A stretch of DNA of 64,000 nucleotides from an uncultured Burkholderiales bacterium (lineage in GTDB: Bacteria; Pseudomonadota; Gammaproteobacteria; Burkholderiales; Burkholderiaceae_C), in the NCBI GenBank assembly GCA_945952065.1, contig CAMFGY010000027.1:1763-65762 (forward strand), given 5' to 3'. The translations under genes were made by a program, and so were the position numbers. Below, in pieces: positions 33,080 to 44,881 of this stretch. How positions within the stretch are numbered: position 1 is the first letter of the stretch; the number at the start of each line of letters is the position of its first letter. Under the pieces are notes generated by a model. It searched no databases. It saw nothing but the letters and a program-made list of their open reading frames with translations, and was not told where the DNA came from.

Positions 33080-33240
33080 GAGGCGCCCCCAGGCCTTCTC
33101 CTCCCCCCGCAACTGAGGGGGAAGTCATAGCCCCCCCCTTACTTCGGGTTTGTGCAGCCGTTTCAAGATCTTTCAAATCCGCCCGAGCCCCAACAAGGCG
33201 CGAGTCCTTGTCGGGAACCCATCCGATCAGAAAGCCCCCA

Positions 33241-33918
33241 ATGAAAAAGACTCTTTTGTTGACTGCCGCCTTGGCAGGTTTTGCATGCAGCGCCTCCGCC
33301 GGCGTGGTTTTGAGCCAGAACCGCGCGAATTTCGAAAGCCAGTTTGCAGGTGCCTACACCGTTGAGACCTTCACCTCCGACTCGCACTTCCCAATCTCCA
33401 CCGGTGTGCTCAACAGCAGCACCAATTTGCCAGGCATTGGCATCACACCGGGCTTGATCAAAGCCGGCGTGACGTATTCGACGCCGATCAGCACCGGCTT
33501 CTTTTTCAACATCGATGCTGGTGCTGGCTTCAATGGCGGTTTTCTGGACAACACCTACACCAATGCCCTCCTCACGGTGACCTTTGACAATGCCGTCTCG
33601 GCTTTTGGCTTTGACACCAATCAATTCATGCGCAATGTTGACGTCGTGCTTCGATACGACGACAACAGCAGCGAGGCCTTTCACGGCATTGCCACCTCGA
33701 TGAGCTTTTTCGGCTTCAACAATGACCAAGGACACAAGATCAAGTCGGCCGTGATTGGCTCGTTGCAGAACGGGACCTTCAAGTTCGCGCTGGATAACTT
33801 CACCTTTGGCAATCGGGGTGAACCTGCGCCTGCGATCCATGTGCCCGAGCCCAGCAGCCTGCTGCTGCTCGTGGCCGCCCTGAGTGGTGCCGCCCTGGCC
33901 CGCCGCCGCAAGGCCTGA
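33241..33918 (+). CDS. PEP-CTERM sorting domain protein
   Basis: MKKTLL signal peptide (ASA); C-terminal VPEPSS + hydrophobic stretch + RRRKA. Confidence 0.92.
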   Translation: MKKTLLLTAALAGFACSASAGVVLSQNRANFESQFAGAYTVETFTSDSHFPISTGVLNSSTNLPGIGITPGLIKAGVTYSTPISTGFFFNIDAGAGFNGGFLDNTYTNALLTVTFDNAVSAFGFDTNQFMRNVDVVLRYDDNSSEAFHGIATSMSFFGFNNDQGHKIKSAVIGSLQNGTFKFALDNFTFGNRGEPAPAIHVPEPSSLLLLVAALSGAALARRRKA

Positions 33919-33936
33919 AGGCGCTGCAACTGAATC

Positions 33937-33958
33937 AGCGACGCCGCGAGGCGTCGCT
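33937..33958. terminator. Hairpin between convergent genes
   Basis: AGCGACGCC-GCGA-GGCGTCGCT, 9-bp stem with GNRA loop. Confidence 0.55.
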
Positions 33959-33983
33959 CAGAACCTCAGCACCGAACCTCATC

Positions 33984-35273
33984 TCAAAAGGTCAGCACAA
34001 AACAAGCCCCGCCGCTGACCGGCTTGACGTAGCGCACGCTACCACCCATGCCGTGGACCAAGTTGCGCACCACGGCCAGGCCAATGCCCTGGCCGCCAGC
34101 GGCTTGGTCTTGCTGGGTGGACGGTTTGGTGCTGACGAAGGGCAGGAAGATGTCGTTCTCCATGCCGGCCGGCACGCCGGGGCCGTTGTCGCGCACCTCC
34201 AGGCTCAGGCGCGCGCCGCGCACCAAACGCGCCCGCACGATTAGCCGCGGCTGGGCCAAGCCAGCGCAGGCCTGAGCCGAGTTTTTGATCAGGTTCAGCA
34301 AGGCCTGCTCCAGCTGACCCGCATCGGCCATCAAGCTCAGGCTGGGTGACTCCAGCTCAAAGCGGGCTTCGCCACCGCGCGCGCGCCAGTCGGCCCCCAC
34401 CAGCTGCTCCAGCCGCGCAAACAGCTCGCTCAGCACCATCGGCTCGCGCTGGGGCTCCGGCCATTCGCTGACCTTGCGGTAGTTGCCCACAAAGGCCGCC
34501 AAGGCATCGGCGCGGCGGGCGATGGTGTCCATCGCCAGGGTCAGGTCTTGCTTGTCGGCCTCGGGCATCGGTGTCTCGCGCAGCAGATCTTGCGCGGTGC
34601 GCGAGAGCGAAGCGATGGGCGTGAGCGAATTCATGATCTCGTGCGTCAACACATGCACCAGCTGGCGCCAGGCCTTCAGGGTCTCCGCCTCCAGCTCCGA
34701 CTCCACTGGCATCATGGCCAAGAGCCGCACCGACTGCTGCTGCAGCACCAACTCGCGGCTGGCCAACAGGCAACGCTCGGTGCCCCGCTCACTCTCATAG
34801 CCGAACAGGCCATGTTCGCTGGCGCCCTGCGCTTCGGCCTGTGCATGGGCGGCCAGACGCGCCAGCAAATCCTCGCGATCGCGGGCACCGCCGGGCGCCA
34901 GCAAACGGCGCGCGGCATTGTTCAGCGCCTGCACCGTGGCCTGCCCAGCGCCTGCGCGGCTCCACTGCCACAAGGCCACCGGCGCATGCTCCAGCCGTGA
35001 CTCCAAGGCCAACTCATGCTGGCGCGCGTGGGCCTCGAAGGAGGCCGCCGGCCGCGCTCCCGCTTGCTCGCGCCACTGCGTTTCCTGCGCCAGCTGCGTG
35101 CGCATGCGCGCCCCCCAGCGCCAGGCCAAACCCACGCCGGCCAGCGCGGGCAAGAGCGCCAACACCATCAAGCGCGGCGACTCATGCTGCCAACCCGCCA
35201 GGCCCGCGCCGCCCAGCATCATGCCCAGGCCCAGCAGCGCCGGCCAGGCGCGCAGACGGCGTCTAGAGTCCAT
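33984..35273 (-). CDS. Sensor histidine kinase (two TM helices, short loop)
   Basis: H-box LTHEIMNSLTPI, N-box LLNLIKNS, DNGPG, FLPFVSTK, GIGL. Confidence 0.93.
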   Translation of the reverse strand: MDSRRRLRAWPALLGLGMMLGGAGLAGWQHESPRLMVLALLPALAGVGLAWRWGARMRTQLAQETQWREQAGARPAASFEAHARQHELALESRLEHAPVALWQWSRAGAGQATVQALNNAARRLLAPGGARDREDLLARLAAHAQAEAQGASEHGLFGYESERGTERCLLASRELVLQQQSVRLLAMMPVESELEAETLKAWRQLVHVLTHEIMNSLTPIASLSRTAQDLLRETPMPEADKQDLTLAMDTIARRADALAAFVGNYRKVSEWPEPQREPMVLSELFARLEQLVGADWRARGGEARFELESPSLSLMADAGQLEQALLNLIKNSAQACAGLAQPRLIVRARLVRGARLSLEVRDNGPGVPAGMENDIFLPFVSTKPSTQQDQAAGGQGIGLAVVRNLVHGMGGSVRYVKPVSGGACFVLTF

Positions 35274-36612
35274 ATTTCTCCAGCCGCCGGTACAGCGCGG
35301 CCCGGCTCAGGCCCAGCAAGCGGGCCGCTTGGCTGATATTGCCCTGGGCCACTTGCATGGCTTCCTCCAGCGCGGCCCGCTCGCGCTCGCTGAGAGGCAG
35401 CAAAGCCGTGCTGGCCTCGTTGGACTCAACGACGAGCGGACTCGCAAGCGGCGGTGCAACTGACGCAAGAGGCGCACGCTGCAAGGCAAAGTCCACCAAC
35501 TCGAAGCGCTCGCCCGGCGCCAAGATCACGGCGCGCTCACAAGCATGGCGCAGCGCACGCACATTGCCGTGCCAGTCGTGCGCCAGCAAGCCCGCCAAGG
35601 CTTGCGGTGAGATTGCACGCTCAGGCTTTTGGTACTGCGCGGCGTAATAGGCCAGGTAATGCTGGGCCAGCAAGGGGATGTCTTCGCGACGCTCGCGCAG
35701 CGGGGGCAGGCGCAGCACGATGGTGTTCAATCGGTAGAGCAAGTCGGGGCGGAAGCGCTGCGCATCAAACAGCGCGGCCTCGTCGAGATTGGTGGCGCTG
35801 ACGATGCGCACATCAATCGGCACCGCCGCGTCGGCCCCCAGCGGCGTGACCTCGCGCCGCTCCAACACGGTCAAAAGCTTGGCCTGCGCGGCCAGCGGCA
35901 TATTCGCCACTTCGTCCATGAACAAAGTGCCGCCTTGCGCGGCCTGGAAGCGCCCCAGCCGCTCGCTGCGCGCATCGGTGAAGCTGCCGCGCTTGTGGCC
36001 AAACAGCTCGCTCTCTAAAGTGCTGTCACTCAAGGCACCCAGGTCCACCGCCAAAAAGGTCTGGTCCGCTCGCTTGGACAAGGCATGGATCTCGCGCGCC
36101 ACCAACTCCTTGCCCGAGCCCATCTCCCCCAAGACCAACACATTGGCCTCGGTGGGCGCCACGCTGCGAATCAGCGAGCGCAACTCCTGCATCGCGCGCG
36201 ACTCGCCCAGCAAGGCCGACGCTGCCTGCGTTCTGGGCTGGCGGCTGGCCAGGGCGGCCGCGACCGTGGCCAGCAGCTTGTCGTTGTTCCAGGGCTTGGT
36301 GATGAAATCAAAAGCCCCGGCCTTGAGCGCCGCCACCGCCAAGTTCACCTCGGCATAGGCCGTCATCACGATCACCGCCGGCGGCTGCGGGCGCCGCATC
36401 ACCTCGGCCAACACCGCCTGCCCCTGCGCACCGTCGATGCGGCCGGGTAGGAAATTCATATCGAGCAGCAGCAACTCCACCGGCTCGGCATCCAGCGCCG
36501 CCGCCAGTTGATCGGGCTGCTGCAAGAGCCGCACCGGCCCAAAGCGCCGCTGCAAGAGCAGCTTGGCCGCAATGCCCACATCGGGGTCGTCGTCAAGAAT
36601 CAGCAGGGACAT
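35263..36612 (-). CDS. Sigma54-dependent (NtrC-type) response regulator
   Basis: REC (ILDDD, LLLDMNF, ITKPW); AAA+ (GEMGSGKE, FGHKRGSFTDA, FMDEV, FRPDLLYRLN); Fis-type HTH. Confidence 0.95.
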   Translation of the reverse strand: MSLLILDDDPDVGIAAKLLLQRRFGPVRLLQQPDQLAAALDAEPVELLLLDMNFLPGRIDGAQGQAVLAEVMRRPQPPAVIVMTAYAEVNLAVAALKAGAFDFITKPWNNDKLLATVAAALASRQPRTQAASALLGESRAMQELRSLIRSVAPTEANVLVLGEMGSGKELVAREIHALSKRADQTFLAVDLGALSDSTLESELFGHKRGSFTDARSERLGRFQAAQGGTLFMDEVANMPLAAQAKLLTVLERREVTPLGADAAVPIDVRIVSATNLDEAALFDAQRFRPDLLYRLNTIVLRLPPLRERREDIPLLAQHYLAYYAAQYQKPERAISPQALAGLLAHDWHGNVRALRHACERAVILAPGERFELVDFALQRAPLASVAPPLASPLVVESNEASTALLPLSERERAALEEAMQVAQGNISQAARLLGLSRAALYRRLEKYGL

Positions 36613-36681
36613 GGGCGAGACGATAGCAGCCTGAGCCTCAGTTCTGGGGCCCATCCTGGCCTTGAATGCATAGAAATGCGG

Positions 36682-36703
36682 GACTGTCCGATTCCGGACA
36701 GTC
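36682..36703. promoter_or_regulatory. Enhancer-like palindrome UAS1
   Basis: GACTGTCCG-ATTC-CGGACAGTC, perfect 9-bp inverted repeat. Confidence 0.75.
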
Positions 36704-36716
36704 AAGCGCCGCGCCA

Positions 36717-36736
36717 CCTGTCCGGAAGCGGACAGG
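36717..36736. promoter_or_regulatory. Enhancer-like palindrome UAS2
   Basis: CCTGTCCG-GAAG-CGGACAGG; same TGTCCG-N4-CGGACA core as UAS1. Confidence 0.75.
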
Positions 36737-36774
36737 TACACAAGTCTTGCGCCCCTCCGCCCGGCCCAAAACGT

Positions 36775-36790
36775 TGGCACAGCTCTTGCA
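36775..36790 (+). promoter_or_regulatory. Sigma54 -24/-12 promoter
   Basis: TGGCAC-AGCTC-TTGCA, an exact match to TGGCAC-N5-TTGCA. Confidence 0.88.
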
Positions 36791-36801
36791 CTAAAGCGGG
36801 C

Positions 36802-38091
36802 ATGAACGCGAATCTGCATCGATTGCCTCCGGTCACTGGCGCTGCCATGGACCGGGTTTTGCCCAAGAACAAATACGCCAAGCCGCTGCGCTGGGCGGCT
36901 GCGGCCTTGGTCGTGATGGCCGCGGCCGGGCTGCTGGTCTACAGCGTGCCGCGCGGCCTGAGCGTGCCGCTCAGCGAGCTGAGCCTGGCCACGGTGAGCG
37001 AAGGCGAGTTCCGCGATGAGCTGGTGCTGCGGGCCCAGGTGGTGCCGGCGCATCAGGTGCTGCTGGATGCGACCGAGAGTGGCCGCGTCGACGCGGTGCT
37101 GGTGCGTGACGGCGACATGCTCAAAGAAGGCGCCCTGCTCTACCGCCTGTCCAACCCGCAGCGCGAGCAAGAGGTCTTGCAGCGCTCCGCCGAGGTGGCG
37201 CAGCAGCAGGCCAATTTGGCCATGCAGCGTACCGCGCTGGCCAATGCCCAGGCCATGCAGCGCCGCGACCTCAGTAACTTGCAGCATGAGCTGACCAAGG
37301 CCGAGAACGAGCTGAGCCGCCAGCAAAGTCTGGCCGCGCAAGGTTTTGTGTCCGCCTCGGCGCTGGAAGACGCCAAGCTGCGCCGCGAACAACAGCTGCG
37401 CCTGCTGAACCAAGCCCGCGAAGACGGCAGCGCCGAGCTGCGCACCCGCGAGCAAGCGGTGGCCGAGATGGAGCGCGCCGTCAAAGGCCTGAGCGAAGGG
37501 CTGGCGGTGGTGCGCAAGGCGGCCAGCGGTTTGTCGGCCCGCGCGCCGCGCGACGGCCAGCTCAGCGGCTTCACGCTGCAGGTGGGCAGCTCGGTCAAAC
37601 CGGGCGACCGCTTGGGCCGCATCGACGATATCAATGGCTTCAAGCTCAGCGGCAATGTCGACGAGTTTTATCTGAGCCGCGTGCAAACCGGCTTGAAAGC
37701 CAGCCTGGAGGCCGGCGGCAAGACCTGGCCCCTGACGGTGTCGCAACGGCTGCCGCAAGTCAAAGACGGGCGCTTTGGCGTCGAGTTGGAGTTCACGCAA
37801 GACCTGCCCCCGGCCCTGCAAGCCGGTCAAAGCCTGGACGCCCGCATCGTGCTGGGCCAGCCCAGCCGCGCCAAGCTCTTGGCCGACGGCCCCTTCTACG
37901 CCGACAGCGGCGGCGCCTGGGTTTATGTCTTGAACGCCGACGGCAGCAAGGCCGAGCGCCGCAATGTACGCCTGGGCCGCCGCGCCGCCGGGCAGATCGA
38001 GGTGCTCGAAGGCCTGGCACCGAACGAACGTGTGATCGTCTCCAAAGTGCGCCAGTTCGGCGAGGCGAAAACACTGAATCTCAAGTCCTGA
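36802..38091 (+). CDS. Periplasmic adaptor (HlyD/MacA-like membrane fusion protein)
   Basis: One TM helix, lipoyl-like GRVDAVLVRDGDMLKEG..L..L.NP, coiled coil, APRDG. Alternative start at 36847. Confidence 0.9.
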   Translation: MNANLHRLPPVTGAAMDRVLPKNKYAKPLRWAAAALVVMAAAGLLVYSVPRGLSVPLSELSLATVSEGEFRDELVLRAQVVPAHQVLLDATESGRVDAVLVRDGDMLKEGALLYRLSNPQREQEVLQRSAEVAQQQANLAMQRTALANAQAMQRRDLSNLQHELTKAENELSRQQSLAAQGFVSASALEDAKLRREQQLRLLNQAREDGSAELRTREQAVAEMERAVKGLSEGLAVVRKAASGLSARAPRDGQLSGFTLQVGSSVKPGDRLGRIDDINGFKLSGNVDEFYLSRVQTGLKASLEAGGKTWPLTVSQRLPQVKDGRFGVELEFTQDLPPALQAGQSLDARIVLGQPSRAKLLADGPFYADSGGAWVYVLNADGSKAERRNVRLGRRAAGQIEVLEGLAPNERVIVSKVRQFGEAKTLNLKS

Positions 38092-38133
38092 AGAACCTCT
38101 CATCCAGAACCTAATTTCCGAGGAGCGAACGCC

Positions 38134-38811
38134 ATGATCCAGCTGAAGAACCTGAGCAAACTGCACCGCAACAGCGAAGTCGAAACCACGGCCCTGAATT
38201 GCATTGACCTGGAGATCGAAGCCGGCGAGTACCTGTCCATCACCGGCCCCTCGGGCTGCGGCAAGTCCAGCCTGCTGAGCATCCTGGGCCTGCTGGACGC
38301 ACCCAGCAGCGGCGAGTATTGGTTCGATGGCCAGAACGTCACCGGTTGGAGCGAACGGCAGCTCAGCAAGCTGCGTCGGGGCCGCATCGGTTTTGTGTTC
38401 CAGAGCTTCAATTTGATCGACGACTTGAGCGTGCGCGAGAACATCGAGCTCGCCCTGGAGTACGGCGAGGTGCCAGCGTCGGAGCACAAGAGCCGGGTCG
38501 ATGAGGTGATGCATCGCCTGGGCATCACGCACCGCGCCAACCATCGCCCCTCGCAACTCTCCGGCGGGCAACAGCAGCGGGTGGCGATTGCCCGCGCCAT
38601 CGTCTCGCGCCCGGCCCTGCTGCTGGCCGACGAGCCCACCGGCAATCTGGACAGCGCCCAGGGCGACGAGGTGATGCGCATCCTGCGCGAGCTCAATGCC
38701 GAAGGCACGACGCTGGTGATGGTGACGCACTCGCCGGCCCACGCAGCGCAGGCCAACCGCTGCCTGCGCCTGCTGGATGGCCGCATCCTCGTTGACGCCC
38801 TGGCCGCCTGA
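38134..38811 (+). CDS. ABC transporter ATP-binding protein (MacB/LolD type)
   Basis: GPSGCGKS, LSGGQQQR, LLADEPTGNLD, VTH. Confidence 0.96.
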   Translation: MIQLKNLSKLHRNSEVETTALNCIDLEIEAGEYLSITGPSGCGKSSLLSILGLLDAPSSGEYWFDGQNVTGWSERQLSKLRRGRIGFVFQSFNLIDDLSVRENIELALEYGEVPASEHKSRVDEVMHRLGITHRANHRPSQLSGGQQQRVAIARAIVSRPALLLADEPTGNLDSAQGDEVMRILRELNAEGTTLVMVTHSPAHAAQANRCLRLLDGRILVDALAA

Positions 38812-38822
38812 AAGAAACCGCC

Positions 38823-41222
38823 ATGAACCTCAAAGACCTGCGCGTCGCCTGGCGCCAACTGCTGGCCGAGCCGGCCTATTCCCTGGTGGTGGTCTTGGGC
38901 CTGGCCATTGCCATTGCCGCCACTTATCTGGTGGCCCTGCTGCTGGCCAATCGCTGGCTGCCCGACCCCGCTGTGCCGGCGCCAGAGCGCGTGCTGCGCA
39001 TGGAATTCAAAGGCAATATCCCGGGCCGCGATGACGATTGGTTCAGCAACAGCCCCTTTGTCTTTGCCCCGGCGCTTCGCGAGGCCAAGGCGCCCATCAC
39101 CCAAGCAGCCCGTTTGCTCGACAGCGAACAAAGCCTGCGGGTGGGCGCGCGGCTCAGCAAGACCCAAGTGCTGTTCAGCGACCCCGACTTGGTGCCCATG
39201 TTTGGCCTCAAAGCCAGCCAAGGAGATTTGCAGGCCGCACTCAGCAAACCCGATGCCATCGCCTTGACCAGCCTCGCCGCCGAGCGTCTGTTCGGTAACG
39301 GGCAGCAGGCGCTGGGTCAACGAGTGCGCATGAATGGGCAGGACATGACAGTGGTGGCGGTGTTGCCGCCGCAGGCCGCCAACAGCGAGTTGCAATTCGA
39401 CGCGCTCGCCAGCATCGAATCCCCCAGCTCGGGCATGGCCGCGAGCGGCATGGACAAAATTTGGTACGCGGTGGCGGGCCGGGTCTTTGTGCGCTTGGCC
39501 GAGGGCGCCAGCAGCGCGCAACTGACCCAGCTGATGCAAGACATTTTTGACCGCAGCCCGGGCACCCTGGAAGTGCCGCCCGAGTGGCGCGCCGGCGGCC
39601 GCAAGAGCGCCTTTGTGCGCGCCGTGCCCTTGACCCGCCTGCCTTTCGAGGGCGCCGGCAGCAGCACGCGCTTGATGCTTTATGCCGCCCTGGGCTCGGC
39701 GGCCAGCTTGATGCTGGGCTTGGCCGCCATCAACTATGTGAACCTGAGCAGTGTGCGCACGCTGCGCCGCCAACGCGAAATCGCGGTGCGCAAGAGCCTG
39801 GGCGCCAGCCCGGACCGCTTGGCCGCCCAGTTCGTGGCCGAATCCAGCCTGGTCGCCTTGTTGGCGGGCGCGGTGGGCCTGCTGCTGGCCTGGCTCTTGG
39901 CGCCAGCATTGGCGGATTTGCTGGATGTGAAATTTGCAGCCCATTTGCTGGCACCGATGCAGTTGCTGAGCCTGGCACTGGGCTGCCTGTTGCTGGGCCT
40001 GCTGACCGGCTTGTACCCGGCCCGCGTGGCGCTGAATGTGCATTGCGCACCGGCTTTGCAGGGGCGCAAGCAGAGCGAAGGCGCCGGGGGCCGCACGCTG
40101 CGCCGCGGCATGACGGTGTTCCAGTTTTGCGCCGCGCTGACGCTGTCGGGGGTGGCGGTGGTGGTGGTCTGGCAAAGCCACTATGTGGCCCAGCTCGACC
40201 TCGGCTTCAAGACCGCTGGACTGCTGGCCCTGGACCTGCCAGACAACATCAAGCCCGAGCAGGTCGATGGTCTTTACGAAACCCTGAAACACCACCCCGC
40301 CGTGCAAGGCCTGAGCTGGAGCGAAGACGTGCCGGGCCGCAACCCGGTGGGCCTGATTGACACCTTGGCCCACGGCGAAACCAAAGCCGGCGCCCGCAGC
40401 GCCCGCTATGACCTGGGCTTTTTCTCGGTGTACCAAATCCCCATCGTGGCCGGCAGCCTGGACGGCATTGTCTTGCCCGACAAAACCGAGCCCGGCGTTG
40501 ACCGACCTCTGGCGATTGATGAAACAGCGGTGAAGGCCTTTGGCTTTGCCTCCGCTCAGGCAGCCATTGGCCAGCAGCTGATGTCGGGGCCGAACGGCTT
40601 TCGCGTCATGGCCGTGGTGGGCGCCATCAAGCAAGAGTCGGCCCGCAATATCTCGCAGCCGCAAGTGTTTCGCCTCTCCAAAAAAGTGCGCAATGTGCTG
40701 ACGCTGAAAGGCCCCGATATGGCGGCGCTGCGCGCAGCGGCCGCCGAGGCGTGGCCGCGCTATCTGCCCGACACCGTGATCGAGATGAACGGCGTCGATG
40801 AGCAACTGGCGCAGCGCTACCGCATGGACCGCAATGTGGGCCGCCTGATCGCAACGACCAGCTTGATTGCGCTGCTGCTGGCCGGCTTTGGCGTCTATGC
40901 GCTGGCCGCCTACACCGTGCGCCGCAGCCAGCTGGAGATCGTGATCCGCAAGCTGCATGGCGCCGACCATCGCCACATCGCCGCACTGCTGATGAAGGAG
41001 TTTGCGCCGCTCTTGGCTTGGGCCGCGCTGTTCAGCCTGCCTTTGATCTGGTGGGTCGGCCACCACTATCTGACGGGCTTTGTTGAGCATGCGGACATGG
41101 GGGGCTGGCCGCTCTTGGCCGCGCTATTGCTGACCTTGTTGATGACCGCCCTGGCCGGCCTGCGCCATGGCCTGGCCGCGCTCGCCATGCGGCCCATCCT
41201 GGCCCTGCGCGACGGCGGCTGA
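38823..41222 (+). CDS. ABC permease, duplicated MacB/FtsX type (copy 1)
   Basis: Two periplasmic and two FtsX-type halves (REIAVRKSLGAS; EIVIRKLHGA). Confidence 0.92.
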   Translation: MNLKDLRVAWRQLLAEPAYSLVVVLGLAIAIAATYLVALLLANRWLPDPAVPAPERVLRMEFKGNIPGRDDDWFSNSPFVFAPALREAKAPITQAARLLDSEQSLRVGARLSKTQVLFSDPDLVPMFGLKASQGDLQAALSKPDAIALTSLAAERLFGNGQQALGQRVRMNGQDMTVVAVLPPQAANSELQFDALASIESPSSGMAASGMDKIWYAVAGRVFVRLAEGASSAQLTQLMQDIFDRSPGTLEVPPEWRAGGRKSAFVRAVPLTRLPFEGAGSSTRLMLYAALGSAASLMLGLAAINYVNLSSVRTLRRQREIAVRKSLGASPDRLAAQFVAESSLVALLAGAVGLLLAWLLAPALADLLDVKFAAHLLAPMQLLSLALGCLLLGLLTGLYPARVALNVHCAPALQGRKQSEGAGGRTLRRGMTVFQFCAALTLSGVAVVVVWQSHYVAQLDLGFKTAGLLALDLPDNIKPEQVDGLYETLKHHPAVQGLSWSEDVPGRNPVGLIDTLAHGETKAGARSARYDLGFFSVYQIPIVAGSLDGIVLPDKTEPGVDRPLAIDETAVKAFGFASAQAAIGQQLMSGPNGFRVMAVVGAIKQESARNISQPQVFRLSKKVRNVLTLKGPDMAALRAAAAEAWPRYLPDTVIEMNGVDEQLAQRYRMDRNVGRLIATTSLIALLLAGFGVYALAAYTVRRSQLEIVIRKLHGADHRHIAALLMKEFAPLLAWAALFSLPLIWWVGHHYLTGFVEHADMGGWPLLAALLLTLLMTALAGLRHGLAALAMRPILALRDGG

Positions 41223-41322
41223 GAGCAAGCCAAAGCACAAAAAAAAGAAACCGAGGAGGAAGCAGGCGGCATCAAGCCGCCGCCTGCTCTTGCAAACAAG
41301 CACAGCCCACACCCCCCATGCC

Positions 41323-43728
41323 ATGAGACTGATTGACCTGCGCGTTGCCGCCCGCCAGTTGCACAAAGACCCGCTGCACGCCTCGGTGCTGGTGCTGGGC
41401 CTGGCCCTGGCCTTGGCCGCCTGCTATTTGCTGGCCGTGCTGCTGCTCGAACGGCTGCGTCCCGACCCAGCTTTGCAAGACCCGGAGCGCATCGTCTTGA
41501 TCGACTTCCACGGCAATATGCCGGGTCGCCAGGAAGACTGGTTCTTGGGCGCGCCCTTTGCGTTCAAGCAAGCCCTGCAAGAGGCCAAAGCCCCTTTGGC
41601 GTCCATCACCCGGGTGTCAGAGGACCAGCCGACGTTGCGCGCCGGCCTTCGCAAGCTGCGCGCCACCGTGCTCGCCGCGGATGCCAGCGCGGTGCCGCTC
41701 TTCCAACTGCGCCCCTTGCAGGGCGATCTGCAAGAGGCCCTCAGCCGCCCGGACACCATTGCGCTGAGCGAGCCCTTGGCGCAGCAGTTGTTTGGCCGAG
41801 AGGCTGCTTTGGGCCGCAGTGTCGACATCGGGCCGCATCGGCTGCGGGTGGCCGCGGTGCTGCCCGCCCCCCGGTCCCGCAGCCTGCTGCGCGCCGAGGC
41901 CTGGATCAGCTTTGATTCGCCCGCCGCCGGGCTGGACGAAGAGACCCGCAGGGCCTGGTTCCAGATCAATGGCCAGGTCTATGCCCGCCTCTTGCCCGGT
42001 GTGAGCGCCGAGCAGATCGGCGCGCTGGCCCAAGGTCTGCTAGACCACAGCCCGGTGATGCAGCAGTTGCCGCCCGATTGGACGGCGGGTGGGCGCAAGG
42101 CCGCCTTCATGCGGGCCCTGCCGGTGCCCCAAATGCCGTTTGAGGGCCGCGTGGGTCAGCAGCGCCTGCAAATGCTGGTCGCGCTGGCCGGCGTGGCGGC
42201 CTTGTTGCTGAGCCTGGCCTTGCTCAATCACATCAACCTCAGCAGTGTGCGCACCTTGCAGCGCCAGCGTGAGATTGCGGTGCGCAAAGCCTTGGGCATC
42301 AGTCCGGCGCGCCTGCTGCTGCAGTTTGCGGTGGAGGCGCAGTTGTTGATTGCGCTGGCGGGCGGCCTGGCCTTGCTGCTCGCTTGGTTGTTGCTGCCCT
42401 GGATCAGCCAGGCCCTGCAAGTGCCGCAGCCCGACCATCTGCTGCAATGGCAAGCACTGGCCGGCTTGCTGCTGAGTTGCGCGCTTTTGTCGCTGCTGGT
42501 CTGCCTGTACCCGGCGCGGCTGGCTTGGCGCCTGCAAGCGGCGCCAGCCTTGCAAGGCCGACAAGCCAGCGAAAGCCAAGGCGGCCAATTGCTGCGCCGC
42601 GTTTTGACCGGTCTGCAGTTCGCCATGGCGATGTTTGTGGTGAGTGCGGCCTTGATCTTGAGTGCGCAAAACCAGCATGTCTTGCGCCGCGATTTGGGCT
42701 TTGAGCCCGCGGGCGTGCTGACGCTGCGCTTGCCCGAACAAGCCAGCGCGCAGCAGGCCGAAGACTTTCATCAAGCGCTGCAAGCCCAGCCCGCGGTGAC
42801 CGCCCTGGCCTGGAGCGACAGCGTGCCAGGCAATGGCTTCATGGATCGCAATGCGGCCTTCACGCGGGGCGATCAAGAGGCCAAGCTGCGCCTCATTGAG
42901 GTGGATGCGAGCTTCTTCTCGCTCTACCGCATGACGGTGCTGGCCGGTCAGCTCGAGCCGCAGGGGCAAGAGGGCCTGGTGCTGGATGAAGCGGCCACGC
43001 GCGCCCTGGGCTGGGCCACGCCGCAGCAGGCTTTGGGGCAGTCCCTCAGCTATGTGATGACCGGCTTGAATCAACAACAATCCAGCTGGCGGGTCTTGGC
43101 CGTGGTGCCCCATCAACGCCAGGAAAGCACCCGCGAGCCCGACCGCCCACACGCCTTTGTGCTGAAAAGTCGCGCACAGCTCTTGGACGGCCAGCGCTTC
43201 TTCCGCGTGCTGAATCTGCGCACCAAGCCGGGCATCGATCCCTCGGCAGTCTTCACGCCCGTCTGGGAGCGCTATTTCCCCGGCGAGCCTTTGGCATGGA
43301 ACTCTGCCGATCAGGTCTTGATGAAGGCTTACGCCTCGGATCTGCGCATTGCCGAACTGGTCAGCGCCTGCGCCGTCTTGGCCTTGCTGCTGGCGGGCTT
43401 TGGCGTGTATGCCATGGCCGCCTTTTTGGTGCAACGCCACGCCAAGGAAATCGTGCTGCGCAAGCTGCACGGCGCTTCTGCGCTGCAAGCGATGAAGAGC
43501 TTGTTCCGTGAATTTGCCTTGCTGCTGCTGAGCGCAGCCTTTCTGGCCCTGCCGCTGTCGGCTGCGTTTGGCGAGCGCTACCTGGCGCAGTTTGCAGACC
43601 GGGTCAGCCTGGGCGGCGGGCCGCAGAGCTGGGCCTTGCTGGGCCTGATCTTGGTGACTGGCGTGGCCAGCCTGCGGCACGGCTGGGCGGCGCTGTCGAT
43701 GCGGCCGGTCTTGGCCTTGAGAGGCTGA
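41323..43728 (+). CDS. ABC permease, duplicated MacB/FtsX type (copy 2)
   Basis: Paralogous to copy 1 (REIAVRKALGIS; EIVLRKLHGAS). Confidence 0.92.
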   Translation: MRLIDLRVAARQLHKDPLHASVLVLGLALALAACYLLAVLLLERLRPDPALQDPERIVLIDFHGNMPGRQEDWFLGAPFAFKQALQEAKAPLASITRVSEDQPTLRAGLRKLRATVLAADASAVPLFQLRPLQGDLQEALSRPDTIALSEPLAQQLFGREAALGRSVDIGPHRLRVAAVLPAPRSRSLLRAEAWISFDSPAAGLDEETRRAWFQINGQVYARLLPGVSAEQIGALAQGLLDHSPVMQQLPPDWTAGGRKAAFMRALPVPQMPFEGRVGQQRLQMLVALAGVAALLLSLALLNHINLSSVRTLQRQREIAVRKALGISPARLLLQFAVEAQLLIALAGGLALLLAWLLLPWISQALQVPQPDHLLQWQALAGLLLSCALLSLLVCLYPARLAWRLQAAPALQGRQASESQGGQLLRRVLTGLQFAMAMFVVSAALILSAQNQHVLRRDLGFEPAGVLTLRLPEQASAQQAEDFHQALQAQPAVTALAWSDSVPGNGFMDRNAAFTRGDQEAKLRLIEVDASFFSLYRMTVLAGQLEPQGQEGLVLDEAATRALGWATPQQALGQSLSYVMTGLNQQQSSWRVLAVVPHQRQESTREPDRPHAFVLKSRAQLLDGQRFFRVLNLRTKPGIDPSAVFTPVWERYFPGEPLAWNSADQVLMKAYASDLRIAELVSACAVLALLLAGFGVYAMAAFLVQRHAKEIVLRKLHGASALQAMKSLFREFALLLLSAAFLALPLSAAFGERYLAQFADRVSLGGGPQSWALLGLILVTGVASLRHGWAALSMRPVLALRG

Positions 43729-43745
43729 AGCAGCCGGTTCGCCAA

Positions 43746-44450
43746 TCAGGGCAGCTCGCGCAGGCCCTGGCCGGCAAACAGCGCCGCGGCCAGCGACTCT
43801 TCGCGCGAACGCACGGTGTCCAAAAAATCATCGGCGCCGCGCATCGCTTTGAAGGTGTCAAAGCCACGCTCCAAAAAGCTCTGCAACTCGCTCAGGCCGG
43901 CGGCCGTGGCCGGGCCGCGCATCATGCGCAGCGCCTGGCGCAGCAGCGGCTTGCGGGTGAGCTTGTCCAGCGAGACACCCACGGCCAGGGTCAAATCGAT
44001 TTGCTGCTGGCGCAAGCCGGGCTCGCCGCAAGCGCACCATGCCGCCTGATAAGGCGCGGCCTGCACGGCCTCTTGCCCGAGCGCCTGGGCCATGCGGGTG
44101 TCCAGGTCTTCCGAGATGGCATGCAGCCGCGCCAGCTGGGCCACGGTGTGCACCACCTCGGACGGAAAGATGCGCACCAGCGCGGGCACCACGCGGGCGA
44201 ACTGCGCATCGCGGCGTGAGTAGTCGCCGGGCCCGTACAACTCACGCAGAAAGAATGTGGTGGCCGCCTCATAGCGCGGCGAGAGCAGCAAGTCGGCATA
44301 GGTCCGCGCAAAGCGCTGCTGCTGGTAGCGCTTGAGGGCCTGCACCCGCGCGTCCAGCCCGGGCTGATCCTGCCGCAGCTGACGCTGAGCCTCAACCGCC
44401 TGCAGATGGCGCAGGATCTCGGCTTCGATATCGCGGGCTTGCTCGCTCAT
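43746..44450 (-). CDS. FFLEELY-motif protein
   Basis: Contains FFLRELYG..DYSRRD.QF and FLERGF.TF. Confidence 0.8.
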   Translation of the reverse strand: MSEQARDIEAEILRHLQAVEAQRQLRQDQPGLDARVQALKRYQQQRFARTYADLLLSPRYEAATTFFLRELYGPGDYSRRDAQFARVVPALVRIFPSEVVHTVAQLARLHAISEDLDTRMAQALGQEAVQAAPYQAAWCACGEPGLRQQQIDLTLAVGVSLDKLTRKPLLRQALRMMRGPATAAGLSELQSFLERGFDTFKAMRGADDFLDTVRSREESLAAALFAGQGLRELP

Positions 44451-44458
44451 TCACCCAC

Positions 44459-44881
44459 TCATTCGCCCAGCAGGCTGCGGCAGCGCTCTTCATGCTGGCT
44501 GATTTCGGCAAGCGTCACTTCGATATCGTCCAGCTGCTGCTCCAGCTGGCGGCGATGCTGCTGCAAAACCTCCAAAAAGGCGCGCAGCTGTGATTCGGCG
44601 CCACTGGAGGCGTCGTACATATCAACCAGCTGCTTGATCTCTTGCAAGCTCAGGCCAAGGCGCTTGCCGCGCAGGGTCAGCTTCAAGCGGGTGCGGTCGC
44701 GGTGGGTGTAGACGCGGTTGCGGCCGGCCCGCGCGGGCTCCAACAGCCCCATGTCTTCGTAAAAACGAATCGCACGTGGCGTGATGTCGAACTCTGCCGC
44801 CAACTCGGTGATGGTGAACAAGCGCCCGTTGCCCTCGGGGCTGGCTGCAGCCGGGACTGCCGGACGGGAATCGTTGCTCAT
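44459..44881 (-). CDS. liuR: MerR-family regulator, LiuR-like
   Basis: FTITELAAEFDITPRAIRFYEDMGLL.P.R.G.NRVY..RDRTRLKLTLRGKRLGLSL; LiuR-type box upstream. Confidence 0.8.
   Translation of the reverse strand: MSNDSRPAVPAAASPEGNGRLFTITELAAEFDITPRAIRFYEDMGLLEPARAGRNRVYTHRDRTRLKLTLRGKRLGLSLQEIKQLVDMYDASSGAESQLRAFLEVLQQHRRQLEQQLDDIEVTLAEISQHEERCRSLLGE

Follow-up and report, generated by a model that had tools for sequence, protein, structure and literature searches.

A putative sigma-54-dependent cassette for a MacB-like ABC exporter under two-component control in a freshwater Burkholderiales bacterium

Here, we describe a group of six genes at positions 33984 to 43728 of a 64,000-nucleotide stretch of DNA, referred to as the window, from contig CAMFGY010000027.1 of an uncultured Burkholderiales bacterium. 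The host is a freshwater bacterium of the Roseateles/Paucibacter type. A histidine kinase and an NtrC-type activator are encoded on the minus strand, and a periplasmic adaptor, a stand-alone ATPase and two large permeases are encoded divergently on the plus strand. With moderate confidence, we interpret the group as a self-contained cassette that encodes a type VII (MacB-like) ATP-binding cassette (ABC) exporter and is controlled by sigma-54 and a two-component system. The high GC content of the region gives rise to many spurious open reading frames (ORFs), and domain searches pick out the following six real genes. Their control elements are listed in between.

33984-35273, minus strand: histidine kinase, 429 amino acids (aa), recognised by Pfam HATPase_c, an AlphaFold2 (AF2) model, Foldseek and homologue alignments; transmembrane helix (TM) 1 at residues 10-28, a 4-residue loop, TM2 at 33-55, helical linker 57-95, PAS domain 96-190, dimerisation and histidine phosphotransfer domain (DHp) 191-270 with His211, catalytic domain (CA) 271-429
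35263-36612, minus strand: NtrC-type sigma-54 activator, 449 aa (Pfam Response_reg, Sigma54_activat, AAA_lid_14, HTH_8); receiver domain (REC) with Asp51, AAA+ domain with Walker A 162-169 and GSFTDA 209-214, Fis-type helix-turn-helix (HTH)
36685-36700: enhancer site 1, perfect palindrome TGTCCGATTCCGGACA, about 73 bp from the activator start codon
36719-36734: enhancer site 2, perfect palindrome TGTCCGGAAGCGGACA, 34 bp from site 1
36775-36789, plus strand: sigma-54 -24/-12 promoter, TGGCACAGCTCTTGC, predicted transcription start near 36801
36803, plus strand: alternative start of the adaptor, giving 429 aa
36847-38091, plus strand: periplasmic adaptor (membrane fusion protein), 414 aa, one N-terminal TM (Pfam HlyD_3, HlyD_D23)
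38134-38811, plus strand: stand-alone ABC ATPase, 225 aa (Pfam ABC_tran; Walker A at 38, signature motif at 142, Walker B with Glu167)
38823-41222, plus strand: permease 1, 799 aa (Pfam MacB_PCD and FtsX, each twice)
41323-43728, plus strand: permease 2, 801 aa (Pfam MacB_PCD and FtsX, each twice), same architecture as permease 1

This layout is in good agreement with the original prediction, made from the DNA letters of the window. It had named a kinase with two TMs joined by a few residues and no periplasmic sensor, for which the AF2 model shows the 4-residue loop. It had further named an NtrC-type partner with a GSFTDA variant of GAFTGA, found at residues 209-214, and a divergent operon of an adaptor, a stand-alone ATPase and two paralogous MacB-type permeases, with which the coordinates and Pfam domains agree. 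The prediction also stated that no TolC-like gene is included, and none of the approximately 18 OEP-family genes of the genome lies on the window contig. The proposed course of the circuit through sigma54 is strongly supported by a conserved -24/-12 promoter, the two enhancer palindromes and the presence of rpoN. The cytoplasmic PAS domain at kinase residues 96-190 had been overlooked. Three further ORFs, at 35263-38742 (minus strand), 38100-41090 (minus strand) and 41167-43728 (plus strand), were dismissed as high-GC artefacts or over-extended starts.

Promoter, operator and activator

The intergenic region between the activator and adaptor genes measures 234 bp. Both enhancer palindromes read TGTCCG-N4-CGGACA, and two matches to this motif were reached by 1 out of 100 shuffles. 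The element TGGCAC-N5-TTGC at 36775-36789 is the sole match within the window, and a sigma-70-like promoter was not found across 33100-44600. Approximately 68 out of 70 related intergenic regions carry TGGCAC-N5-TTGC together with one or two TGT-N10-ACA palindromes, the spacing between palindromes being 24 bp in Oxalobacteraceae and 34 bp in Roseateles. The palindrome is still found in cassettes whose kinases are only 35-39% identical. Because the promoter and palindromes are conserved and rpoN is encoded in the genome, the sigma-54 wiring of the cassette is well supported at the level of sequence.

Within the 5.27-Mb genome, perfect copies of the palindrome occur only at the window locus, and the sole palindromic copy with one mismatch precedes a paralogous cassette. 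Since the operator motif is essentially confined to the cassette, the two-component system looks dedicated to the transporter, with a regulon apparently limited to the cassette and its paralogue.

The activator gene overlaps the kinase gene by 11 bp. By its domains and motifs, the protein belongs to the NtrC-family enhancer-binding response regulators, and its predicted sigma-54 contact loop is a Gly-to-Asp variant. This variant is not a peculiarity of the window: a G[SA][FY]TDA loop is present in 74 of 75 orthologous activators, 16 of which have the GAFTDA form, and the variant loop is located at residues 230-237 in the activators of distant cassettes. What defines a target of the NtrC family, namely a -24/-12 promoter, upstream enhancers and rpoN in the genome, is all found here.

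As a side observation, the in-frame ATG at 36803 would add a short stretch (36803-36846; MNANLHRLPPVTGAA-MDRV) that resembles the adaptor N-terminus of Chitinimonas (MNAPTSPIPPATPVTGAG-MDRV). Translation from this ATG, if it occurs, would leave an mRNA beginning at the predicted transcription start near 36801 with almost no leader.

Transporter operon, relatives and variants

The adaptor exceeds the cut-off of the NCBIfam model RND_mfp (TIGR01730), while its best equivalog match, DarC, stays under the cut-off. The best NCBIfam matches of the ATPase are DarD, the nucleotide-binding domain (NBD) of MacB, FtsE, LolD and YbbA, all of them under their cut-offs. The permeases are paralogues with 45% identity. 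The AF2 model of permease 1 (predicted local distance difference test score, pLDDT, 89.6; predicted template modelling score 0.84) combines 8 TM helices with two periplasmic domains of the alpha/beta type, which makes the protein a covalently fused MacB-like dimer. Judging from sequence and comparison, permease 2 is likewise a complete pseudo-dimer with 8 TMs. Its top full-length fold match is E. coli YbbAP (9ge6), followed by MacB, LolCE, HrtB and BceB; by sequence, MacB is its best match in the Protein Data Bank. Permeases and ATPase belong to the type VII (MacB/FtsX-fold) ABC superfamily, which is defined by 4-TM FtsX domains carrying a large periplasmic insertion between TM1 and TM2 and by a nucleotide-binding protein of the MacB/LolD/FtsE type, here a separate and not a fused protein. 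Judging from sequence, an exporter role of the cassette is likely. No OEP/TolC gene was found on the window contig or in 81 related loci.

The 100 bp that separate the permease genes contain a hairpin (41261-41289) with a 10-bp stem (AGCAGGCGGC-ATCAA-GCCGCCTGCT) and without a T-tract. This hairpin may act in processing or attenuation and thereby set the ratio of permease 1 to permease 2. Two neighbouring genes were also recorded. Just downstream of permease 2, a 234-aa protein without a Pfam match is encoded at 43746-44450 (minus strand); among the relatives, only the three closest ones (79-89% identity; L011-L013) have it there. At the other end, the gene of a 236-aa secreted protein whose C-terminus bears a PEP-CTERM sorting signal (33208-33918, plus strand) converges on the kinase gene and is not kept beside the cassette in relatives.

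Relatives of the kinase occur in at least 554 species genomes, and 495 kinase clusters (50% identity) match at E <= 1e-30. The closest kinases, with 79-84% identity, are from Paucibacter and Roseateles. Related loci were fetched for the best 80 of the at least 554 relatives, none of these 80 being from Dickeya; 4 of the loci were too short to show the flank. In approximately 72 of the 76 informative loci, adaptor, ATPase and one to three permease copies are divergent from activator and kinase. The exceptions are L055 and L064 without a transporter, L059 with a permease only, and L081 without a permease. Starting from permease homologues, a kinase-regulator pair was found in 4 out of 4 loci. 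Starting from distant kinases of 35-39% identity (Myxococcota and two metagenome-assembled genomes), the same five-gene layout appeared in 3 out of 3. Kinase and transporter are thus linked from both search directions. Names of 20 distant representatives comprise only Myxococcota, Rhodothalassiaceae and Agarilytica.

Kinase, regulator, ATPase and permease, and the adaptor where present, group the modules alike, and paralogous cassettes within one genome stay distinct. From these comparisons, the five-gene cassette is kept from Burkholderiales to Myxococcota and is passed on as a unit. Beyond its five genes, no gene is conserved in the flanks of the 81 loci, neither TolC nor a precursor peptide, immunity or biosynthetic gene. 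Plasmid carriage was rejected, the only hit being one weak Phocaeicola match.

Some relatives differ in detail. Between the adaptor and ATPase genes, Chitinimonas carries a 65-aa ORF (L010 6922-7119) and Parachitinimonas a gap of about 630 bp (L026 6499-7133), both absent in the window. A distant tier-2 cassette in L098 (10954-19332) has behind it a radical-SAM gene, two small ORFs (63 and 47 aa), two genes of the arginase family and a further double-FtsX permease. This neighbourhood may represent a peptide natural-product cluster beside a cassette, reminiscent of the Vfm and darobactin contexts discussed below.

The genome of the window itself holds three further modules in which a two-component system accompanies a MacB-type ABC system. 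The C3 module (L100 1573-9157) is co-directional, in the order adaptor, ATPase, double permease, activator (GAFTDA) and kinase, the latter with two TMs, HAMP and PAS. In the C22 module (L101 1984-10851), adaptor, ATPase, an OEP gene, two single FtsX permeases, an activator with GAFTGA and a kinase follow each other. The C11 module (L091 5993-11157) has a kinase of 47% and an ATPase of 75% identity, one permease and no adaptor. Its regulator has lost the AAA+ domain and consists of REC and Fis-HTH. The module retains one operator palindrome (TGTTCGGAACCGGACA) and has no -24/-12 element. From its sequence, the C11 module is a natural sigma-54-independent derivative. Altogether, three of the eight sigma-54-type AAA+ regulators of the genome, including that of the window, adjoin MacB-type ABC systems, and the AAA+-less C11 regulator marks the fourth module.

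A short REC and HTH_8 regulator (193-195 aa) was also found in Inhella proteolytica (L092 4231-10412) and in Steroidobacteraceae (L094 4202-10433, and L069). This sub-lineage retains adaptor, ATPase, permease and the TGT-N10-ACA operator, and all components that are present in the C11 module place the sub-lineage together with the C11 copy. The AAA+-less derivatives provide a clean case of a regulator that switches its sigma-factor dependence while the operator stays.

The pump as a possible sensor

According to the AF2 model (pLDDT 84.9, built with 60 homologues), the kinase lacks a periplasmic or extracytoplasmic domain. Model and alignment agree on an outer loop of the four residues QHES, followed by the invariant P33-R34. 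The TM2 helix starts at residue 33 and extends to about residue 70, and a second helix covers 75-95. Residues 96-190 adopt a five-stranded cytoplasmic PAS fold (pLDDT approximately 90), with invariant charged residues R122/R123 and E162-R167 in the alignments. The top Foldseek matches are kinases of the PAS-DHp-CA type, i.e., YF1/SB2F1, WalK, NifL and ThkA. The extracytoplasmic loop is minimal in the examined window-type and tier-2 kinases and measures about 22 residues in the kinase of the more distant C22 module. Because of the PAS domain, the kinase is not without an input despite the missing periplasmic sensor.

We asked what this kinase reads. One answer is co-sensing, where the input would be the substrate-bound or cycling state of the transporter. 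From the sequence comparisons we consider this the likeliest input, with a chance slightly below even. In its favour are the minimal outer loop of the window-type and tier-2 kinases, the linkage of kinase and transporter from both search directions, the diversification of the parts in step as modules, and the co-sensor proposal for the similarly described VfmG/VfmI pair of Dickeya (PMC9306890). The fastest-evolving parts of the cassette, by mean pairwise identity, are the periplasmic domains of the permeases (0.35), the kinase TMs (0.37) and the kinase linker (0.32). The ATPase is the most conserved component (0.80), the AAA+ domain (0.74) and DHp (0.73) also being among the slowest, with PAS intermediate (0.56). 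In a residual-distance test, the shared history was removed via cubic terms of the activator, ATPase and kinase-core distances. Residual co-variation was then found between the kinase TMs and the permease periplasmic domains (r = 0.12, permutation p = 0.002) and between the kinase linker and the permease (r = 0.17-0.18, p = 0.0005). The adaptor and the permease, a known physical pair that served as positive control, gave r = 0.18-0.19. No such signal was obtained for PAS versus permease (r = -0.05) or for kinase TM versus adaptor (r = -0.09). The co-variation of kinase TM and linker with the permease is only suggestive, as it is small, the permutation is not corrected for phylogeny, and fast-evolving segments can share lineage-specific rate shifts.

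Besides this limit of the test, several further points weigh against co-sensing. Pumps that adjoin their own two-component systems are usually not sensors, and such synteny is common in the absence of co-sensing. The sequence conservation of the kinase TM helices is poor, and the 81 loci share no accessory or biosynthetic gene that hints at a substrate. Two related loci, L055 and L064, have kinase and activator but no transporter in the vicinity. The Bce systems, which are the model for transporter-based sensing considered here, differ in two relevant aspects: BceS has a HAMP-like linker and no PAS while the kinase of the window has a PAS, and BceB has 10 TMs and one extracellular domain while the permeases have 8 TMs and two periplasmic domains. 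Going by the model, the cytoplasmic PAS could be the real kinase input, binding a cytoplasmic ligand or partner by itself.

The last point leads to an alternative where the kinase detects the inducer autonomously, the pump is a mere output and signalling does not require the transporter. PAS would bind a compound that has entered the cell or a metabolite, or the TMs would sense a membrane-dissolved compound or a perturbation of the bilayer. We rate this as possible and on the unlikely side. It is in good agreement with a confidently modelled PAS that sits directly on the DHp coiled coil, as in sensors of the FixL/YF1 type, and that is conserved and has invariant residues. NCBI labels some of the homologues PAS domain-containing sensor kinases, L055 and L064 retain kinase and activator with no transporter nearby, and direct sensing is the default for pumps under two-component control. 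However, a conserved PAS is ill-suited as a ligand sensor if the substrates vary like the permease periplasmic domains. PAS also shows no residual co-variation with any transporter part, whereas kinase TM and linker do, and in the similarly described Vfm system signal specificity follows the permease gene and not the kinase gene (PMC9306890).

That same Vfm precedent, by description (PMC9306890, PMC10714721), suggests another role for the cassette, namely that of a signal receptor of the peptide or quorum type more than of a detoxifying pump. The permease periplasmic domains would bind an extracellular signal, ATP cycling would gate the kinase, and the operon would be positively autoregulated. 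The GAFTDA/GSFTDA signature common with VfmH fits, as do the rapid evolution of the periplasmic domains and the radical-SAM gene with small ORFs beside the distant cassette L098. We nevertheless regard this role as improbable. The membrane-fusion adaptor is kept in nearly all cassettes, which points to transport toward an outer-membrane duct, no conserved signal-synthesis genes adjoin the cassette in the 81 loci, and with the operator motif confined to the cassette no downstream regulon is visible. We give a slim chance to an envelope-biogenesis exporter of the LolCDE/DevBCA type, which would deliver a lipoprotein, glycolipid or lipid made by the cell itself to the outer membrane and be induced by envelope stress. 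LolCE and the DevA/DevB families are among the fold and sequence relatives, and YbbAP handles membrane lipids and hydrophobic compounds (PMC12646458). Yet the patchy distribution, the one to three permeases and the up to four cassette types in one genome do not resemble a housekeeping pathway. Genes for a cargo or its biosynthesis are not linked, and the NCBIfam scores for LolC/E, LolD and DevA/B are far under the cut-offs.

Overall, the cassette might operate as follows. The phosphorylated activator would bind the TGTCCG-N4-CGGACA sites and remodel the sigma-54 holoenzyme, and the -24/-12 promoter is predicted to drive adaptor, ATPase, permease 1 and permease 2. Two copies of the ATPase would energise either permease, which would make the paralogues, of which relatives have one to three, alternative specificity modules. 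The pump would work with the adaptor and an unlinked duct of the TolC family. Its cargo would be an amphipathic compound, probably an antimicrobial or a signal of peptide or lipid-like nature, which it would remove from the periplasm or from the inner membrane's outer leaflet. Under co-sensing, the state of the transporter would be relayed to the kinase via the TM and juxtamembrane helices, with PAS as a transmitter or modulator. The outcome would be a demand-driven (flux-type) feedback loop like that of Bce, as proposed for VfmG/VfmI.

A more far-reaching version is put forward tentatively, and we think it possible and on the unlikely side. Here, the cassette would be a Gram-negative flux or occupancy sensor in which the loop-less PAS kinase reads the conformational double-FtsX cycle via its TM and juxtamembrane helices, and the one to three interchangeable permeases would be alternative ligand receptors that feed one kinase. 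Such a modular receptor-plus-pump array would be ancestral to both stand-alone resistance cassettes and the Vfm quorum-sensing receptor, and its transcriptional output would have been rewired at least once from a sigma-54-dependent to a sigma-54-independent form by loss of the AAA+ domain.

Comparison with known systems

The Vfm system of Dickeya comes close to the window cassette, a resemblance judged against published descriptions and not against sequences. In the kinase VfmI, a very short loop connects the two TM helices, and a co-sensor role of the permease VfmG was proposed in 2022 (PMC9306890). Polymorphism in Dickeya follows the signal-synthesis genes for the permease gene vfmG but not for the kinase gene (PMC9306890). 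VfmH is a REC-AAA+-Fis protein with GAFTDA at 231-236 (PMC10714721) and thus has the rare Gly-to-Asp loop in common with the window activator (GSFTDA 209-214). Adjacent genes for an ABC ATPase and a permease of more than 2.1 kb, the loop-less 2-TM kinase and the REC-AAA+-Fis activator are likewise common to both. In contrast, the Vfm genes lie within a 26-gene signal-synthesis cluster and VfmH activates the AraC regulator gene vfmE, whereas the window cassette is a stand-alone unit with an adaptor, two permeases and enhancers on its own operon.

In Bce systems, a type VII-related transporter is paired one-to-one with a loop-less 2-TM kinase (PMC11009047, PMC9169098). As in the window, the regulon is essentially the transporter itself, and kinase and permease co-diversify; BceB is among the fold matches (8g3a, 7tcg). 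Unlike the NtrC-type regulator of the window, BceR is OmpR-type and sigma-70-dependent, and Bce modules are devoid of an adaptor or outer membrane component. The sequence similarity is at superfamily level only. The two TMs and the 4-residue loop (under about 10 residues in Bce-type kinases) fit a Bce-type assignment, but PAS, permease topology and regulator class differ, and membership was rejected.

MacAB-TolC (5nik; PMC5985334), for which type VII mechanotransmission has been described (PMC5985334), resembles the cassette in the 4-TM FtsX fold, the periplasmic domain between TM1 and TM2 and the adaptor of the HlyD type. A TolC partner would be encoded at another site, which is also the case in E. 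coli. MacB forms homodimers and carries its NBD fused at the N-terminus, while the window system has two halves in a chain of 800 aa and a separate NBD, along with dedicated sigma-54 two-component control. YbbAP(-TesA) (9ge6), which extracts hydrophobic compounds from the membrane (PMC12646458), is the best full-length fold match to permease 1 (E = 1.8e-19, 900 aligned columns). It shares the single-chain double permease of about 800 aa with a separate ATPase, and YbbA appears among the NCBIfam matches of the window ATPase. The identity is 14%, though, and YbbAP partners with the TesA hydrolase and has neither an adaptor nor a dedicated two-component system.

A Gram-negative ABC transporter that signals to a kinase through PAS is known from PhoR-PhoU-PstSCAB (PMC9239213, PMC4423584). 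The window kinase follows the layout of PhoR, with two TMs, minimal loop, linker, PAS, DHp and CA, 429 versus 431 aa, and His211 versus His213. Unlike the Pho system, the cassette has no PhoU-like bridge gene; Pst works as an importer, and PhoB belongs to the OmpR type. Kinship beyond this layout was rejected, since BLASTP aligns DHp-CA only, with 22% identity, and the phoR_proteo score is 43.8 versus 334 bits. The transporter-as-sensor idea is plausible, and it is not original in Gram-negatives, as PhoR-PhoU-PstSCAB and the Vfm proposal precede it.

With regard to ADOP (TIGR03434), the permeases align over positions 2-802 of the 803 model positions and score 266.3 and 232.1 bits versus a cut-off of 622.3. 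Membership was rejected, and on the basis of sequence they form a subfamily related to but separate from ADOP. A 40%-identical permease homologue is named ADOP family protein by NCBI. ADOP permeases are abundant and have no assigned function (PMC3914696); those of the window are not orphans but accompanied by ATPase, adaptor and regulator. The darobactin exporter DarBCD was rejected as well (DarC 160 versus 450, DarD 259 versus 375, DarB 51-64 versus 700 bits), and no radical-SAM or precursor gene as in the dar context is conserved nearby in the 81 loci. LolCDE and DevBCA membership was rejected on curated cut-offs.

Parts of the arrangement have been reported before. A divergent two-component system and pump is found in S. 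maltophilia macRS-macABCsm (PMC10295115), and a computational survey of 2025 noted, as a first observation, sigma-54 promoters upstream of FtsX-type ABC systems (COG0577/COG1136; PMC12316311). Our literature searches found no experimentally characterised sigma-54/MacB cassette. The window cassette is a stand-alone variant with an adaptor, two permeases and a PAS kinase that lacks HAMP. The cassette type to which it belongs is widespread and uncharacterised, and its components are of known kinds. The large double-FtsX ("ADOP"-like) family here gains a defined motor, adaptor, promoter, operator and regulator, and the cassette occurs in culturable Burkholderiales, e.g., Roseateles, Massilia, Janthinobacterium and Chromobacterium. 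If the pump is indeed the sensor, flux sensing of the Bce type would extend to Gram-negatives, and the cassette would offer a simple, non-pathogenic proxy for the proposed VfmG/VfmI model of the crop pathogen Dickeya. Its main value is that of a tractable system for Gram-negative flux sensing and for the function of double-FtsX permeases.

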